Source: a virus. From it: a stretch of 64,000 nucleotides of DNA. Under the pieces are notes generated by a model, which saw nothing but the letters and a program-made list of their open reading frames with translations, had not been told where the DNA came from and made no database searches. The position numbers and the translations under genes were made by a program. Position 1 is the first letter of the stretch, and each line of letters starts with the position of its first letter. Positions 40,901-46,917 of the stretch are shown piece after piece. The stretch is from the IMG/VR virus record IMGVR_UViG_3300046170_000289; one strand, given 5' to 3'.

Positions 40901-41157
40901 TTAGCAGAGACGCGATCTTTCATCGCTTGAGTCATTGCCTCTACTTGGATAGCAATGCCATTCATCGATGCACCCAAGGAATTCATACCTGAGGTGATTT
41001 TCTTAAATGCCTTATCCTGATCCTTGACAATCTTACCTAACTCGTCAGCAGCAGTCAGGGCAGTAAACTTCTTGCCACCACCAGTACCCCTATAAGATAT
41101 CATCTTATAAAGTTTTGGTTTTGAGACCCTAGTTGATGGTGCTTTTGGTGATGCCAT
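37993..41157 (-). CDS. tape-measure-like/hub protein
   Basis: 1054 aa, helical Lys/Glu N-terminus, GA-rich amphipathic repeats, repeated ASGG motifs. Confidence 0.65.
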   Translation of the reverse strand: MASPKAPSTRVSKPKLYKMISYRGTGGGKKFTALTAADELGKIVKDQDKAFKKITSGMNSLGASMNGIAIQVEAMTQAMKDRVSAKIRGDNITKKQEVAADKLEETREKKKTAEEKRRELKKKRDEAEDQSEKKEKKAGSEVVQNFKEAAKGAFGGFLGAIARFLGGIFKLFIGFAALDWISKNPDKVQKLVEGLAAIGKFVWKITSFLVGSAFDGLVKFMENPISLKGIIGLGQFLLSAAPIFLGIAFLKNPLATAKTVGWVVTSLIKGVLNIGKAAQAGAKLKKFMGTKLGKGLVAGGLGVGAYLGEKAAGASQSEAVGAGVGTAGGALVGEAIGSKLGGPLGGMIGGAAGAFVGGKAGKAIGGFMEPIFKPIGRFFGMIGDVFKQVMAPIKDSLSGFFEILGKVMTGVLDFIQPHLPMISKILGVGIQVMFAPLFLGIKALTTVLKFFAPKTDEIDKEKSKSGKAAGGSFQTAKMVKPKMASGGSFNLQDEMAKQLRKTAKVARAFGQLMQLPFKALGVGIMTAIGGIGKVFGAFLPAPIRNMLGAMIAPLAKIFGVSTSVIGGSASNKEDMKGEDKGKAKDDPGVTWEEKLLEAIAGDDGTISLIGKLFKAIVEHPIFKGVKAVAGGILGAVGNFFGFSEGGVLPKASMGGWIQGPQSGYPVSLDGGATTSFIGHGTEWVGMKGFAGGGAFVVPFDTPATRMNPGLTGQRMGEASRGGYTMPFSKGGFLPKFSSGGKFDPEKYKKDSFKASRVVLNDKSYYVVYGFEGSPKDAKINIKSMSKRTKAGVMGMGEERQGVKPDSPEFKAVMNSGGLKTDIANRHRVSTGKRGRSTPANISEIKIHPQADTAYWFNKSYQDHKSEGASDQNAARAAAEGYQIDPVTKMSVKPGADNEFAAPETMKDAVITEKERQEEKAAAETKTDTEKKGESADDILDRLFGKEVDGKRDGGALKKGLTELGKATTTNTSGTKVEDAQQQKSESKLDNLKALTAQRDAAMQPLVMEKSEAPIMGGDDNEIIIPGPDKNDADDFLMPKFGVLTEFNSTLSNLM

Positions 41158-44100
41158 TACTTAGTGAGAAGTGGCGATGGTGAGGTATACACTGCGCTTG
41201 TGCTACCTCTTGTATTTATCTGCTGTGTAACCTTTTGCACAACTAATTTCTCCATGACAACAGGGACAATGTTTGCTTCCTCATCACGCTGTGCTTTATC
41301 TGCGATTGCTCTGAGATCTTGGACAGCTTTATCTCTGACATTTCCCAGTGGTTTGATTTTAGATGAATCAATGTTTGCAGGAGTTTCACTCACGGTGGGA
41401 CCCGTGGCATCAACTGCAGAAGTATCTGCAGGATCCGTTGGTGTTGCTGAGACGTTGGTGCTGATCTTTGTCAAGGCAGATGTTAAACCTGTCTTGAATG
41501 CCTCCATCATCTCTTCGAGAGTCTTGGGTTTTTCAGGTTTGGCATCATCTCCACCGTCACCACCGCCATTACTGCTGCTTAGGGATGTAATTTGACCCTC
41601 AGACGTTGTGGTGGATATATCAGATCCATCACCAAACTTAGTAGATGGTTTGATAGATCTAGGTGCTTTCCACATCCAGACATCACCATCAGGCAACTGA
41701 TTCTGGAAGAGATTCTTGTCCATGAAGTAATACTTACCAGGACCATTTTTCTTATCACCAGCACTGTTAGTTTTCTTCCAAGCGCCTCCCATGTTTAGTT
41801 GTCCAAATGGATCATGAACCACGAATCCATTATTTTTGTAACCAACGACCATACCCCAGTGTCCAGATCCCTTGTATTTGAATCCAACTGGGACAGGATA
41901 CCCTGCTTTTATCTCTGAGCGAAGATCTTCCCAACTCTGACCAGTTTGCAATACAGAATCAATACCAAAGTCTGCAAGTGCTTTCTTCTGAGGATATGCC
42001 AGAGTGGAAATACCATACTGACTACGGACTTTGTTATATTCCTCAGCAGATAACGATTTACCAGTGAGTTGTGATGTCCACATTGCCATTGTGGTTGAAT
42101 AGCACTGTGTATCACCAGGGCGACCATATTTGTCTGATTTGTTTGCTCTCTGGTTAAGATAAGGCACATCTTTGATGATCTTACCACCCTCAGCAGCAAA
42201 CTGAATACCAGCACGCTTACTGCTGCCAGATTCCATCACACCTGCTTCATCGTTACGACGCCAGTCATTCATGCCGCCGTTATGCTTAGCAAGCTTATTA
42301 CGATATGCAGCAATAACTGGACCGTAATCACCACTCTTCAGTGCCTGTTGCACAGTGCCTTTGATACCAGCACCATCTAAAGATCCATAGTTAAAGACTA
42401 CAGACTCAAGACCAGCTTTTACTTTATTAGGTGCCTTGTTATAGTCACCACCAACCTCATCGACGAGGCGTTGACGGTGCTCAATAATATGCTTAGATTT
42501 GATCCAATATGCTTCCTCTTCGGTGATCGTGTCACCTCTCTTGACTTTACCCGACTTACGGAATCCAGATGGATAATAAGTTGCACCAATACCAATGGTA
42601 GGGATTTCCCAACCATAGTTAGCATCGGCATATGCCTCTGTCCTCAATCCCTCATAGCTACCTAGAAGTGCTGCAAACTTCTCATCAAATCCACCAGGAA
42701 TGTTTTTAACTGGAGTGGTGCTACCAGGACCATTATTGGTGCTTGCTGAAGACCCCATCTGATTCCCAGACTGAGATCTTTGCTTCTCTATCTCTGCTGC
42801 CTTTGCAGGATCAAAGATCTTGATACCACTGATGAGGAGTTTATTCAGTCCATTATGGATGGCATCGAAGATATTCTCCTTATAAGTGAAATTCTTAACT
42901 GCCTCGACCTTTTTCTGCTCAGTCTGAGTTGCTTGGAATTGTACGCTATTACTTACACCACCAGCAGTGCCACCACCACCAGTGCTGACATTTACACCTA
43001 GTCCACTAGAGATCCTTTGGATGTCAGGTGCTAGGACAGATTTTACTTTGTTGCCAACGAATCCAAATGCACCAAATGATCCAACTATGGATTTAAGGTA
43101 GAGACCACCCACCATGCCTAGCATGTCGGGGTGACTACCAAACTGCATAGCACCACCCGCTGCCATCTCTACAGGACCGCCTGCTGCCTTCTTATTCTCT
43201 TTGTCAAAGTCAAACAGGTTGAATGTCAACGCATCAGCAATACCACCTGCCACAGAGGCAGGATTCATCAGACGCTTGGCATTATTGACGACAAACTGGA
43301 CAGTGCCCTTGATAGCATCCATCATGCCACCAAAGATAAACCCAATGAAGTCACCAAGGATCTTGGCAGCATCCATCAGGACTTTGCCGAGTCCTCCTAT
43401 GAGACCAAATATCAACCCTAAGGGCTCAGAGAGCTGCTGGAATAGAGGTCCGATGGTCATCTTGACCACCTCAAACATCATCTTAAATGCTCGACCGATA
43501 GGACCAAAGATAGGCTCCATGATCGGACCTAACTCTTTACCTACCCACTCACCTAAGAAACTACCGATCGCATTACCAACGATAGGTGCAAAGGGTCCTA
43601 GGAATGGTCCTAAGAGTGCTGTGCCAGCGATACCGCCAACTAAACCACCAACACCCTGACCGACACCAGCACCAATAGCAGAGGATGCCTTCTCACCGCT
43701 TGCAAGACCTGCTGCGATCCTTCCAGCGCCACCTACGACGCTCATGCCGACGTTTAACTTACCGCCGAGCTTACCAAATGCTTTGTTAGCACCAGCACCA
43801 AATCTCTTGCGTGCTGCAGATGCTTTACCTTTGAATTTAGAGAAACGACTTTCTTTGCCAAATCTATCCTCAAATGCTTTACCAGCACCAGGATTCTTGC
43901 GTTCTGCCTTTGCGGCAGACTTCTTCATCGCTTCGTATTCTTCTTTGGAGTAGATAACTCCAGTCTTCTTATCTCTAAACCCGCTCTTTCTTACCTTCTG
44001 GTTTTGATCCTGCTCTGCAGACTGCTGGTTAGACATCTGGAAGATCATTCTCAGACGATTAACGTCCTTCATCAACTTCCAAGGCATGATCATATACTGT

Positions 44101-44774
44101 GCAGTCCTTAGCACAGCAAGACCACCCATCAGTTGCACAACTCCGAGTATACCTCGGAATGCACGTCTGATCGGACCTTCTTCCTTAAAATTACCAATTA
44201 CATTAGTCAGTCCATCAAGGAGCAGACCAACCCCAAATTTAGTAACTTTGAATGCAAACTTACCTATGGTAAAGAGTATCTTGAATACCTTTACGGCACT
44301 CTCAGCATTCTTGGGGTTACTTAACCAGTTTAATGCTCCAAATATAATCATATATTTGAAGACTTTGAATAGACCATTGAAGAATCCACCAAGCATATTT
44401 AACTTGGGTTTCTGCTTCTCAACCGCCTTTCTACCTTCCTCTTTACCTTCCTCTACGCCCTTCTCTGCTTCATCTTCTAAGCGAGCACGTTTCTTCTTTC
44501 TGAAAGTGCGTCGGATATCCCGCATGGATGTAGTCCACTTGGTCTTATCCTTCTTTGATTTCTTCTTGATCTCCGTGACTTCTGTCTTAGAAGTGTCTGA
44601 AAGATACTCCTTTTCAAACTTTAGAAGCTCAGTCGTATCATAAAAACTCTTGGCAATGCCATCCGTCACGCTACCCATGCGATTGATGCTTTTACGCACC
44701 TGATCCATGTTTTTAGCGATACCTGACTTACCAGTTATCGGTTGAATTTTTACGAAACTACGGATTGCTGCCAT
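41157..44774 (-). CDS. tape-measure-like protein with GH24-like lysozyme and C39-like peptidase domains
   Basis: GA-rich repeats; EGLRTEAYAD...PTIGIG; VPYLNQ...TQCYST...GHW...HDP. Confidence 0.75.
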   Translation of the reverse strand: MAAIRSFVKIQPITGKSGIAKNMDQVRKSINRMGSVTDGIAKSFYDTTELLKFEKEYLSDTSKTEVTEIKKKSKKDKTKWTTSMRDIRRTFRKKKRARLEDEAEKGVEEGKEEGRKAVEKQKPKLNMLGGFFNGLFKVFKYMIIFGALNWLSNPKNAESAVKVFKILFTIGKFAFKVTKFGVGLLLDGLTNVIGNFKEEGPIRRAFRGILGVVQLMGGLAVLRTAQYMIMPWKLMKDVNRLRMIFQMSNQQSAEQDQNQKVRKSGFRDKKTGVIYSKEEYEAMKKSAAKAERKNPGAGKAFEDRFGKESRFSKFKGKASAARKRFGAGANKAFGKLGGKLNVGMSVVGGAGRIAAGLASGEKASSAIGAGVGQGVGGLVGGIAGTALLGPFLGPFAPIVGNAIGSFLGEWVGKELGPIMEPIFGPIGRAFKMMFEVVKMTIGPLFQQLSEPLGLIFGLIGGLGKVLMDAAKILGDFIGFIFGGMMDAIKGTVQFVVNNAKRLMNPASVAGGIADALTFNLFDFDKENKKAAGGPVEMAAGGAMQFGSHPDMLGMVGGLYLKSIVGSFGAFGFVGNKVKSVLAPDIQRISSGLGVNVSTGGGGTAGGVSNSVQFQATQTEQKKVEAVKNFTYKENIFDAIHNGLNKLLISGIKIFDPAKAAEIEKQRSQSGNQMGSSASTNNGPGSTTPVKNIPGGFDEKFAALLGSYEGLRTEAYADANYGWEIPTIGIGATYYPSGFRKSGKVKRGDTITEEEAYWIKSKHIIEHRQRLVDEVGGDYNKAPNKVKAGLESVVFNYGSLDGAGIKGTVQQALKSGDYGPVIAAYRNKLAKHNGGMNDWRRNDEAGVMESGSSKRAGIQFAAEGGKIIKDVPYLNQRANKSDKYGRPGDTQCYSTTMAMWTSQLTGKSLSAEEYNKVRSQYGISTLAYPQKKALADFGIDSVLQTGQSWEDLRSEIKAGYPVPVGFKYKGSGHWGMVVGYKNNGFVVHDPFGQLNMGGAWKKTNSAGDKKNGPGKYYFMDKNLFQNQLPDGDVWMWKAPRSIKPSTKFGDGSDISTTTSEGQITSLSSSNGGGDGGDDAKPEKPKTLEEMMEAFKTGLTSALTKISTNVSATPTDPADTSAVDATGPTVSETPANIDSSKIKPLGNVRDKAVQDLRAIADKAQRDEEANIVPVVMEKLVVQKVTQQINTRGSTSAVYTSPSPLLTK

Positions 44775-44914
44775 TAGAGGGCCATGCGTGACTGATCTTG
44801 GTTTTGCCTTCTTTCTTCCTCAGCAATGTGTGCGAGGAGAAGATTCACATATACATCACGTTCCCACGGTATCATATTCTCTAACTCGGTCAGTGAATAT
44901 TTGTGGTGCTGCAT
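44774..44914 (-). CDS. gp51: gp51-like baseplate hub assembly protein (frame stays open back to 44971; likely the frameshifted extension of gp26)
   Basis: MQHHKYSLTELENMIPWERDVYV, read manually. Confidence 0.75.
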   Translation of the reverse strand: MQHHKYSLTELENMIPWERDVYVNLLLAHIAEEERRQNQDQSRMAL

Positions 44915-44964
44915 CAAAGCAAAGTTTGTTTTATAGTAGTTTTCAAGACTATCGTGCAGTAGGG

Positions 44965-45669
44965 CTATGCGAAAAAACTTGCAAGTCCTTCAAGCACAAC
45001 ATCAGATACGACTTTAGTGTTGGGGTTAACAACTTCAAGTGTGTATGATAGTTTGGGCATAGTCTCAAAGAATTTTTGGACTTTAGCAAACTGCTCGGAA
45101 TTCAAGTCTTCCAAGAATTCAAGTGCTTCTTTCTTAGTGAAGTTGTCATAGACTTCTTCCTTATCGTAAACACTTTCAATACACCCTGCTGCCAACTCGA
45201 AGATATCCTCGATATTGGGATCATCCGACATATTTTGACTGATGAATACATCAATCGACGGATACTTCATAACGATACCTACATTGTCATCAAGAAGCAT
45301 TTTCTTCTCATGATCTGCAGGAATAACAACCTCAACTTCATTCAGAGGGACCATCACTTCGACTTGGGTCTCATTATCATCAGGGCAGGTGATCTTGAAT
45401 TCACTTGCTTCACCGACAGCAGTAGCACGGATGCGAAGGAAGATATATTCGATCTCGAAGGTTGCGAGATCTTCAACCTTACCTTTCAGGTTGGTGCAGT
45501 TTCTGATGATGGTCTTAACTGCTTTGATCATCTGCTTGTCGTCTTGCGACTCCATAGCGAGATACAGCAGTTTTTCCTCCTTAACGAGGAAAGGTCTATA
45601 TGTGATTTTCGTGCCAGTGATAGGCAGCGTCAAATCATACTCGGGGATAGCGAGCTTAGGTAAAGGCAT
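44965..45669 (-). CDS. gp26: gp26 baseplate hub assembly chaperone
   Basis: MPLPK...YRPFLVKEEKLL...DIEYIFL-like segment...GLASFF. Confidence 0.88.
   Translation of the reverse strand: MPLPKLAIPEYDLTLPITGTKITYRPFLVKEEKLLYLAMESQDDKQMIKAVKTIIRNCTNLKGKVEDLATFEIEYIFLRIRATAVGEASEFKITCPDDNETQVEVMVPLNEVEVVIPADHEKKMLLDDNVGIVMKYPSIDVFISQNMSDDPNIEDIFELAAGCIESVYDKEEVYDNFTKKEALEFLEDLNSEQFAKVQKFFETMPKLSYTLEVVNPNTKVVSDVVLEGLASFFA
44971..44977 (-). promoter_or_regulatory. putative -1 frameshift slippery heptamer T TTT TTC
   Basis: In frame, immediately before the last codon (GCA) and stop of gp26; a -1 slip enters the gp51 frame. Confidence 0.65.
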
Positions 45670-45694: not shown

Positions 45695-46447
45695 TTAGGT
45701 GCCAAAGAAGGATGAATCTATTTGATCGGCAGAGAATCCTAAGCGAGCAAATATCTCATCAAAGTTACGAATAACTTTATCATTGACTTCAGGTTTGAAT
45801 GATAACACGTCCTCTGCAACTGTATCAAATCTGAATCTCTCATATTTGAAGTCAACATCAATCTTCAATAGATCTGCTGGACCATTGTTGAGAGACATTG
45901 CTGAGATGTCGAAGGGATATGCACCATACATTTGCCAGACTGCAGTGGATCTATTCATCCTCTGCTCAAACTGGACTGGTCTTCCAGCACCATTATTAGC
46001 AGTGCCTTTATATACAACGTTAGCAGCATTCTCCCACTTCAGGATCTGAATGGATGACGTGTATTCATCGTAAAATGTAACTCTATTTTCAGCATCATTA
46101 GCAGTCATATTCATCCAATTCTCAAAGAATTGACGATGATACATGTCCTTTGTCATGATGAATGACATTCGGACTTCTTGCTTCTGCTGACCATATGCAT
46201 AGTCATATGGCATACCAACAGTCTTGACTGATTGTGTCTTAATCCTTCTAGCAGGGATAGTTACACTGTCAGCGAAGTAGTTGATAGACTCATAATGCTC
46301 CTTATAGGAAGGCTGTATCCTCTGAGCATACAACATCGGGGGGAGAGTGATCTCAACCGAAAATAGATTCGACTTTGCAATATCCTTCTCACCACTGCTG
46401 ACCAGATCAGCAAATCGGAGAAAACTATTGGGATTTCTGTAACTCAT
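45695..46447 (-). CDS. tail tube/baseplate initiator (gp19/gp54-like)
   Basis: SVTIPAR, NWMN, YPFDISAMSL, VDFKY tube-protein pattern. Confidence 0.75.
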   Translation of the reverse strand: MSYRNPNSFLRFADLVSSGEKDIAKSNLFSVEITLPPMLYAQRIQPSYKEHYESINYFADSVTIPARRIKTQSVKTVGMPYDYAYGQQKQEVRMSFIMTKDMYHRQFFENWMNMTANDAENRVTFYDEYTSSIQILKWENAANVVYKGTANNGAGRPVQFEQRMNRSTAVWQMYGAYPFDISAMSLNNGPADLLKIDVDFKYERFRFDTVAEDVLSFKPEVNDKVIRNFDEIFARLGFSADQIDSSFFGT

Positions 46448-46917
46448 TAAACTCGACTCCAGATGTGACTGCTAGGGACTTCGATCCAGCGACCTGCTGC
46501 ATTAAATAAGAATTGCTCTATAGGCAATGGAGTCATATCCTGCAGATCAATCGGTTTAACAGTATAGACGTTGGTAGCATTTGACATAAAGTATTTATGA
46601 TGGCAACGGGCAGGATAAGCAGGACTACCCATAGACCACTGTGCAGCAATCGTCCTTCTTGCTGATGGTTGTAGATAATGCAAGTTACCACCTGAGAATT
46701 GCATGTTTGGTTTATCCAGATCGGATATCTGCACCATAGGGAATCTGTCATAAAATGACAGTTTCTCAGTTGCAGCAGAATACGCAAAGAAGATGATATC
46801 ACCAACTGCAAAGGTGCCTTCATAAGGCTCTAAACCAAATTGTAGTTGTGAGCGATACCACTCTTTGGATTGACTCTTACCTTCGGCAAGATCTTTGACA
46901 TCACTGAAGATGCTCAT
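46447..46917 (-). CDS. gp2: gp2 DNA end protector
   Basis: WYR, YDRFPMV, GGNLHYL; adjacent to gp4. Confidence 0.8.
   Translation of the reverse strand: MSIFSDVKDLAEGKSQSKEWYRSQLQFGLEPYEGTFAVGDIIFFAYSAATEKLSFYDRFPMVQISDLDKPNMQFSGGNLHYLQPSARRTIAAQWSMGSPAYPARCHHKYFMSNATNVYTVKPIDLQDMTPLPIEQFLFNAAGRWIEVPSSHIWSRV

Follow-up and report, generated by a model that had tools for sequence, protein, structure and literature searches.

A probable −1 ribosomal frameshift linking gp26 to the short gp51 reading frame in T4-like cyanophages and their relatives

Where does the N-terminal part of gp51 come from in phages whose annotated gene 51 encodes only the end of the protein? The products gp26 and gp51 are listed as baseplate hub assembly chaperones of T4 (Leiman et al. 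2010, PMC3004832, Table 2), and T4 gp51 is required yet absent from the particle (PMC3004832). The gp51 proteins of cyanophages and marine vibriophage were described as being without the first ~200 amino acids (aa), with no mention of a frameshift, in a survey in which Aeromonas phage Aeh1 was the only one of 26 T4-like genomes without gp51 (Sullivan et al. 2010, PMC3037559). We have analysed a locus at which this question arises, in a stretch of 64,000 nucleotides of DNA from a marine T4-like cyanophage (IMG/VR record IMGVR_UViG_3300046170_000289; hereafter the window) that carries a gp26 gene followed by a short open reading frame (ORF) called gp51. A preliminary description of this DNA had proposed that a −1 ribosomal frameshift fuses the two and that gp51 is mis-annotated as a separate gene, and this proposal has gained strong comparative support. 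The best explanation, which we hold with a probability of about 0.85, is a programmed −1 frameshift that would produce both gp26 and a 298-aa gp26-Gp51_C protein. Judged by the comparisons below, gp26 and the short gp51 ORF are very probably one recoded gene; the data support the view that "gp51" has been wrongly annotated as a free-standing gene. A slip would supply the ~200 residues missing from the cyanophage protein, which has long resembled no more than the final fifth of T4 gp51.

A phased slippery heptamer at the end of gp26

The gp26 protein of the window ends in ...GLASFFA*, encoded by GCA AGT TTT TTC GCA TAG. In the zero frame this is phased as AG[T TTT TTC] (44977 to 44971), which has the form X XXY YYZ, with both codons specifying Phe. 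Four codons ahead of the heptamer, a TGA closes the −1 frame. After this stop the frame reads RTCK-FF-RIALLHDSLENYYKTNFAL-MQHHKYSL... up to a TAA at 44774-44776, with 65 open codons past the heptamer and no stop before the short gp51 ORF. Between the heptamer and the ATG at 44914 the window contains neither ATG nor GTG, and a TTG lies directly ahead of that ATG. The predicted transframe product would join residues 1-233 of gp26 to these 65 residues, giving 298 aa. The peptides predicted for the window are VVSDVVLEGLASFFR across the junction, IALLHDSLENYYK from the part preceding the ATG and VVSDVVLEGLASFFA from the C-terminus of gp26. In all of this, that is, the gp26 ending and its in-phase heptamer, the upstream TGA, the frame running open to MQHH without ATG or GTG, and the sizes of the 234-aa and 298-aa products, the preliminary description was accurate.

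The heptamer as such is no more frequent than expected by chance, with 10 copies in the window against 9.97 expected. Its conservation in phase at one position in 156/156 related loci, together with a coding-type substitution pattern ahead of the ATG, does greatly exceed chance. The loci form two sets. A search with gp26 as the query gave 80 IMG/VR loci with gp26 identities of 49-99%, making 81 distinct junctions with the window included. TTTTTTC was invariant and in the same phase in 81/81 of these cyanophage-type junctions. The base preceding the Phe-Phe codons was always T, though the residue encoded by its codon varies (Ser, Ala, Asp, Asn), and silent sites near the heptamer vary while the heptamer stays fixed. 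Since Phe is encoded by TTT in 69% of cases elsewhere in the gp26 genes, TTT-TTC would be expected in ~0.22 of independent sequences. In every junction the zero-frame stop falls one or two codons past the heptamer and the −1 frame is open into gp51-like sequence.

The second set came from a scan seeded with gp26 of the Sinorhizobium phage phiM7, which provided 75 usable loci, 30-40% identical to phiM7 gp26. All 75 of these distant marine relatives carried T TTT TT[CT] in phase, and a hidden Markov model (HMM) of the Gp51_C extension matched the −1 frame in 75/75 (E <= 2e-9) and the +1 frame in 0/75. Across both sets the zero-frame stop lay 6-30 nt past the start of the Phe-Phe codons. The alignment of junctions across related phages, put forward in the preliminary description as a check on the heptamer and its frame, thus came out in favour of the proposal at every locus. 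We regard the signal, its phase and its universal conservation as established at the level of sequence.

The signal was also found in 8/9 isolates of other groups: S-RIM8 and MA10 (Kyanoviridae), Methylophilales phage Melnitz, Vibrio phage D482, phiM7 (Emdodecavirus), Stenotrophomonas phage Bhz51 (Menderavirus), Cronobacter phage LPCS28 (Straboviridae, Nanhuvirus) and Agrobacterium phage OLIVR5 (Pootjesviridae). No slip was annotated in any GenBank record opened for these phages, and a scan of viral contigs seeded with the Vibrio D482 protein returned no match. In the LPCS28 record (L087:3211-3375) no small ORF is annotated after gp26, and a Gp51_C-like peptide is encoded past T TTT TTC in the −1 frame; here the slip arrangement, and not a pair of genes, is present inside T4's own family, the Straboviridae. 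In Vibrio phage 1.244.A (Ackermannviridae-like; L089:3090-3300) the gp26 homologue ends CTT TTT CGC TAA, with no perfect heptamer, and a small −1 ORF begins at an ATG that overlaps its stop. This lineage may use independent initiation or the slip of a single tRNA-Phe.

We then considered the 19 codons that separate the heptamer from the ATG. They contain no indel in the 81 junctions, and their summed entropies at codon positions 1/2/3 are 16.8/11.4/24.4 bits, a pattern which indicates that they evolve as coding sequence. Several residues are near-invariant, namely R (80/81), H (78/81), L (80/81), N (78/81) and F (81/81), and also Y. The resemblance of this peptide to its counterparts in related phages, which the preliminary description had suggested, was therefore borne out, and the −1 frame ahead of the ATG behaved as coding when it was checked for codon entropies and indels. 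The Arg codon, CGN, starts with the last base of the heptamer, and its G (+7) is fixed in 80/81 junctions despite a zero-frame residue that may be Ala, Glu or Gly. Selection on the −1 frame thus appears to set in right at the slip site, ahead of every codon at which initiation might occur. That the stretch is coding can likewise be taken as established.

The MQHH ATG is itself less well kept, being replaced in 14/81 junctions by ATT, ATA, ATC, GCA, GTA, CTT or GTG; ATG also occurs at codon 5 and at codon 8, in either case in only about half of the 81. A strong ribosome-binding site at 44914, which the preliminary description had named as a point that would speak against a slip, was looked for: the window has no Shine-Dalgarno (SD)-like sequence ahead of this ATG, compared with a GGAG before gp26. 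The ATG at 44914 is probably just an internal Met codon.

The long form of gp26 in T4 and other two-gene phages

Read from FF, the −1 peptide is matched from residue 2 onward by phrog_634, the gp51 family (E 8.3e-31), and the nearest Atlas clusters carry PF28602 Gp51_C (listed in Pfam 38.1). The peptide also matches positions 231-276 of 282 in the gp26-family profile phrog_150, a match to its C-terminal part that is accounted for by T4 gp51. Indeed, T4 gp51 (249 aa) contains a full PF12322 domain (residues 1-201, E 3.9e-52) and then Gp51_C (phrog_634, residues 147-246, E 1.2e-23). A profile of the fused form aligned with T4 gp51 without a break over the predicted junction (hhalign 92%); the extension fell on T4 gp51 residues about 195-244, with ...SNYSL... 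against ...GLSSFFRIALSHMDLENYYKLNFALLQYHKYSL..., and T4 gp26 ends at the homologous ...GLKEFFEL. The homology of the extended product to T4 gp51 is, in terms of sequence, established. In the window PF12322 and Gp51_C lie in different frames and no long form has a gene of its own. A tblastn search of the window gives a single PF12322 gene, and cyanophages likewise have one copy (643 places in 643 records). With a single PF12322 gene and its two domains in different frames, the long form could be made only via a shift of frame.

As a control we looked at phages with a separate gene 51. The heptamer is absent from gp26 of T4, Acinetobacter phage Octan, RB16 and Aeromonas phage 44RR, all of which have such a gene; in T4 gp26 the Phe-Phe codons are TTC TTT. 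The statement in the preliminary description that T4 lacks a tail-chaperone frameshift therefore holds as regards the heptamer, but T4 does possess a short and a long form, encoded by a pair of paralogues. Genes 26 and 51 lie on opposite strands in T4, and the two are divergent in T4, Octan and 44RR. In RB16 (L092) the order is 48-54-51-26-25 on one strand, with gene 26 directly after gene 51. Gene order indicates that the two-gene lineages have rearranged the 26/51 pair. As a separate observation, T4 gp26 (L090:3806-4429, minus strand) matches the gp28 family phrog_1140 weakly (E 9e-4), and gp28 may be a third relative of the gp26/gp51 fold.

The results presented above, namely an invariant phased heptamer, a coding signature upstream of the supposed start, a dispensable ATG, no ribosome-binding site and an in-frame counterpart in T4 gp51, support a −1 slip. 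If, as we infer, ribosomes do shift here, most would end at the gp26 TAG and release the 234-aa chaperone. In the simplest reading, a tandem slip, a minority would shift with two tRNA-Phe on UUU-UUC (44977-44972), both of which would slip back by one base onto U UUU UU and re-pair perfectly. Translation would then resume in the −1 frame at Arg (CGC) and add the 65 residues of the Gp51_C domain, so that the outcome would be a 298-aa transframe protein with the two-domain build of T4 gp51. The two forms would be expected to act like T4 gp26 and gp51, as non-structural chaperones in the assembly of the central hub and the tape-measure protein; of the long form, small ("catalytic") amounts would suffice, a logic like that of lambda G/GT.

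Candidate stimulators and alternative explanations

Frameshifting in dnaX is stimulated by an upstream SD sequence about 10 nt ahead of the heptamer. At positions −14 to −10 all 81 junctions have G-A-[G/A]-G-G, ending 9 nt before the heptamer; the window has GAAGG and most relatives GAGGG. The Glu codon within this element is GAG in 62/81 junctions, against 34% GAG elsewhere in gp26, an enrichment with a nominal p of about 4e-15 that is inflated by the relatedness of the sequences. We consider GA[GA]GG a candidate upstream stimulator of the dnaX type.

Downstream of the heptamer the relatives differ among themselves. Junction folding gave z < −2 in 50/126 of them. In one relative, L003, a hairpin begins 5 nt past the heptamer (−25.4 kcal/mol, z −4.0). 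The clade to which it belongs (L003-L015, 60-80% identical to the window in gp26) has a two-tier hairpin of −25 kcal/mol with z of about −4 to −7 (L003:3200-3260); a hairpin of this type is absent from the window and from L001 and L002, and the folding showed no downstream structure in the window or its closest relatives. A downstream stimulator thus seems to have been gained and lost between close lineages. Two helices drawn by hand were rejected, being paired in 70% of cases against 67.5% in shuffles, with covariation of 0.227 against 0.189. Since the window is without a downstream stimulator, the efficiency of its shift may be low. T4 gp51 has reportedly long been described as needed in catalytic amounts, a requirement that low efficiency would fit.

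Several points weigh against a programmed slip. The transframe protein is here a prediction from sequence signals. In the window, the 90 nt past the heptamer hold no significant structure (−7.8 kcal/mol, z +0.73), and RNAalifold on 32 junctions gave no common structure, with no pairs predicted. The SD-like element overlaps the codons of a conserved E-G, so that the two constraints are inseparable. Phe-Phe is also kept as protein sequence in T4 gp26, and its conservation must therefore be partly at the protein level, although this does not explain the choice of codons or the preceding T. Finally, the ATG is kept in 67/81 junctions, and an additional free peptide of 46 aa is possible.

This last point leads to a first rival, in which nothing is recoded and a free Gp51_C peptide of ~46 aa is translated with the ATG at 44914 or the TTG next to it as its start; ribosomes that have ended at the gp26 stop, 50 nt upstream, might re-initiate there. 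The conservation upstream would then reflect longer gp51 ORFs or RNA elements elsewhere. It agrees with the annotation in every GenBank record that we looked at and with the retention of the ATG in most junctions, and marine cyanobacteria and their phages often translate without a strong SD. Against it stand the coding signature, which reaches 19 codons ahead of the ATG to the Arg codon inside the heptamer, the window's pre-ATG stretch with neither ATG nor GTG, and the variable occurrence of the ATG and its two possible substitutes. Nor does it fit Cronobacter phage LPCS28, which has no annotatable small ORF at all, and it leaves unexplained both the invariant phased heptamer and its absence exactly in phages with a full-length gene 51. 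We regard this explanation as very improbable. Scarcely more probable is a stutter of RNA polymerase on the T6 run (A6 in the template), adding one U to some transcripts, which would then be translated conventionally to 298 aa. A homopolymer run is indeed present in every relative and reaches T7-T8 in some (Melnitz, L096). Productive transcriptional slippage usually needs about 9 or more U, compared with which six is short, and the run is always X XXY YYZ-phased and ends in a Phe codon (TTC/TTT) in 156/156 loci, a feature of consequence for the re-pairing of tRNA and of none for stutter.

Contigs from seawater bear on this rival and on a further one, in which the junction is a decayed or mis-assembled gp26-gp51 fusion that arose by a one-nucleotide homopolymer deletion or a sequencing error and has no function. 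Contigs from seawater DNA and RNA libraries of independent runs cover the junction with T6 and no indel. For polymerase stutter the RNA-library contigs, in which no letter is inserted, count only weakly, since contigs hide minor variants; they are blind to rare U7 variants as well as to transcript ends and expression levels. About ten singleton metagenome ORFs of ~299 aa carry PF12322 and Gp51_C in one frame (P0003, P0007, P0010, P0012, P0019, P0029 and P0039 among them). The junction of P0019, ...LEGLSSFFRIALSH... (...SSFFRIALSH...), is exactly that predicted for the shift, and others change frame a few codons before it. Such in-frame versions would be in keeping with stutter, and also with error, to which homopolymers are prone. 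They may represent true fused variants or else errors of assembly at the homopolymer, and we have given them little weight. Decay or error is effectively refuted by the conservation data: the same T6C and the same frame offset recur in 156 independent loci as well as in completed genomes of isolates from several families, the same T6C is seen in DNA contigs from independent seawater runs, the zero-frame stop always lies within 6-30 nt, and both frames are under purifying selection. We therefore retain the programmed −1 frameshift as the reading that best covers these observations.

The gp26 locus and its relation to known tail-chaperone systems

The features of the locus are collected in Table 1; all genes of the region are carried on the minus strand.

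Table 1. Features of the gp26 locus in the window, in order along the minus strand
Feature	Position	Strand	Remarks
gp2-like DNA end protector	46450-46917	(-)	
Tube-family gene (gp54/gp48-like)	45698-46447	(-)	PF23849 Phage_TTP_2, E 5.7e-9; phrog_45 'tail tube', E 4e-42
gp26 ORF, zero-frame product, putative baseplate hub assembly chaperone	44965-45669	(-)	234 aa, PF12322 T4_baseplate
SD-like GAAGG	44987-44991	(-)	ends 9 nt upstream of heptamer; possible dnaX-type upstream stimulator
Slippery heptamer T TTT TTC	44971-44977	(-)	X XXY YYZ phase, gp26 codons Phe232-Phe233
gp26 zero-frame stop TAG	44965-44967	(-)	one codon past heptamer
65-codon −1-frame extension, Gp51_C domain	44777-44971	(-)	RIALLHDSLENYYKTNFAL-MQHHKYSL...MAL
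Short ORF called gp51 in databases	ATG 44914, stop 44774-44776	(-)	
ATG taken as 'gp51' start in relatives' annotation	44912-44914	(-)	probably internal Met codon
Tape-measure-like protein	41157-44774	(-)	1205 aa; weak tape-measure profile matches and position

The gp26 protein matches PF12322 over residues 9-234 with the full profile covered (E 4.5e-69), and phrog_150 with E 3.8e-75; the GGAG is located 6-9 nt ahead of its ATG. Immediately upstream lies the tube-family gene, and the records of Vibrio phage D482, phiM7 and OLIVR5 annotate the gene at this position as a tail tube or tube initiator. On the other side, the ATG of the 1205-aa protein overlaps the TAA of the extension (TAATG). This protein has glycine-rich hydrophobic stretches and matches the tape-measure protein (TMP) family phrog_794 weakly (E 2.4e-5), and its counterparts in relatives match TMP phrogs 4200 and 305. 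Together, the weak profile matches and the position give a weak indication that it is a tape measure. It also contains a lysozyme domain (PF00959, residues 706-833) and, past it, a C39-like cysteine peptidase domain (PF13529, residues 869-989).

The order tube-family gene, gp26/51 with the slip, TMP-like gene mirrors V-G/GT-H of lambda. A relation of gp26 to the tail assembly chaperones (TACs) was not apparent from sequence: Pfam, PHROGs and NCBIfam placed the protein in no TAC family and gave only PF12322, phrog_150 and phrog_634, with no NCBIfam model for either part, and a sequence search of the PDB with gp26 returned only chance-level matches. When a natural fused form was modelled with AlphaFold (pLDDT 80.8), the PF12322 part was confident and the extension helical and less confident. 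Foldseek found no match in the PDB. An exhaustive structure aligner was then run against 48,161 chains with two models, the natural fused form and the window's own first 100 residues. The top three chains were 3fgx (Z 7.3/7.5 for the fused-form and window models), the HK97 TAC 2ob9 (Z 7.1/5.6) and YqbN, 3klu (Z 6.7/7.1), which we take to be an XkdN-type protein. They aligned over 80-86 residues with rmsd 3.6-4.3, the fused-form matches lying on residues 1-95. Unrelated chains reached Z <= 5.2 and <= 4.9, and the top values, being below 8, denote a possibly common arrangement according to the tool. From these models the N-domain of gp26 likely has the fold of a tail assembly chaperone. A complex prediction for the 67-aa extension with the upstream tube-family protein, aimed at the analogy with the lambda T domain that binds tube protein, scored 0.00 and is uninformative either way.

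The preliminary description had also called the products a G/GT-like chaperone pair in front of the tape measure gene. Gene order and the likely TAC fold speak for this part of the proposal, and the missing Pfam TAC family membership by sequence speaks against it. Taking together the gene order, an N-domain model that matches TAC folds best, and the description of the T4 proteins in the literature and annotation as hub or tape-measure chaperones, we think that a G/GT-like role is somewhat favoured. The record of Acinetobacter phage Octan (L091) names gp26, gp51 and gp28 each as 'tape measure protein assembly chaperone', so that the functional idea is already present there and the slip is what is new. 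Our search of the full-text literature found no published report of a gp26-gp51 slip; most subscription journals lay outside this search and earlier publication is possible. Xu, Hendrix and Duda are said to have described, in 2004, a conserved −1 frameshift in the tail assembly chaperone genes of long-tailed phages. The slip at gp26 is apparently an unreported member of this known class, with a wide taxonomic reach.

T4-like myoviruses are among the most abundant viruses of the sea, and for some 15 years their gp51 has stood in annotations as a tiny ORF of its own. A real slip would mean that an essential assembly protein is mis-annotated in thousands of database records; it would account for the part of gp51 that is missing, and it would tie the obscure T4 hub factors gp26 and gp51 to the well-understood lambda G/GT paradigm. 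The usual claim that T4-type phages lack a tail-chaperone frameshift would then need revising. The system would also constitute a natural experiment in which some lineages reach a two-protein output by recoding and others arrive at the same output through duplication of the gene.

These considerations suggest a tentative evolutionary scheme, to which we would give slightly less than an even chance. The gp26/gp51 slip could be ancestral to the whole T4-like superfamily (cyanophages, pelagiphage-type marine myoviruses, KVP40-like vibriophages, rhizobiophages and some Straboviridae, for example Nanhuvirus) and a distant homologue of lambda G/GT, the T4 lineage having duplicated the gene and fixed the shifted form as gene 51. 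A tree of PF12322 contains three groups, a gp51 clade, a T4-type gp26 clade and the frameshift type; as it is unrooted and has long branches, the tree leaves the ancestral state undecided. Were the scheme correct, T4 would not stand apart from the long-tailed phages with their near-universal chaperone frameshift, and its "catalytic" need for gp51 would be that for a low-abundance long form coupling the tape measure to the hub and tube.

The closest known system is that of T4 itself, to which the window's is homologous. PF12322 is present in window gp26 and in both T4 gp26 (208 aa) and gp51 (249 aa), and in each case there is a short form ending ...GL..FF.. and a long form, predicted in the window, with about 50-65 extra C-terminal residues. 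They differ in that T4 uses two paralogous genes and has no slippery heptamer, whereas in the window both forms are predicted from one gene by a −1 shift; in T4, moreover, genes 27 and 28 lie between gene 51 and the tape-measure gene 29, whereas in the window the TMP-like gene is directly next.

In lambda gpG/gpGT, as in P2 E/E+E' and in Mu, the slip as usually described is likewise by −1, at an X XXY YYZ heptamer close to where the upstream ORF ends. Lambda G/GT and the predicted pair of the window have in common a short abundant form and a rare form extended at its C-terminus, both non-structural assembly factors, and a position behind a tube-family gene and immediately ahead of the tape-measure gene. 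In contrast to lambda G, which it exceeds in length by about 100 residues, gp26 carries an additional alpha/beta domain and is a member of PF12322 instead of a Pfam TAC family; its heptamer is T TTT TTC where lambda has G GGA AAG, and its extension is short (65 aa) and helical. A more remote parallel is E. coli dnaX (tau/gamma), which by general account shares with the window a −1 slip of the bacterial type and an internal SD-like sequence upstream of the heptamer, which in the window is a candidate stimulator. In dnaX the heptamer is A AAA AAG, it is followed by a strong hairpin and the shift shortens the product, whereas in the window no hairpin follows and the predicted shift would lengthen it.

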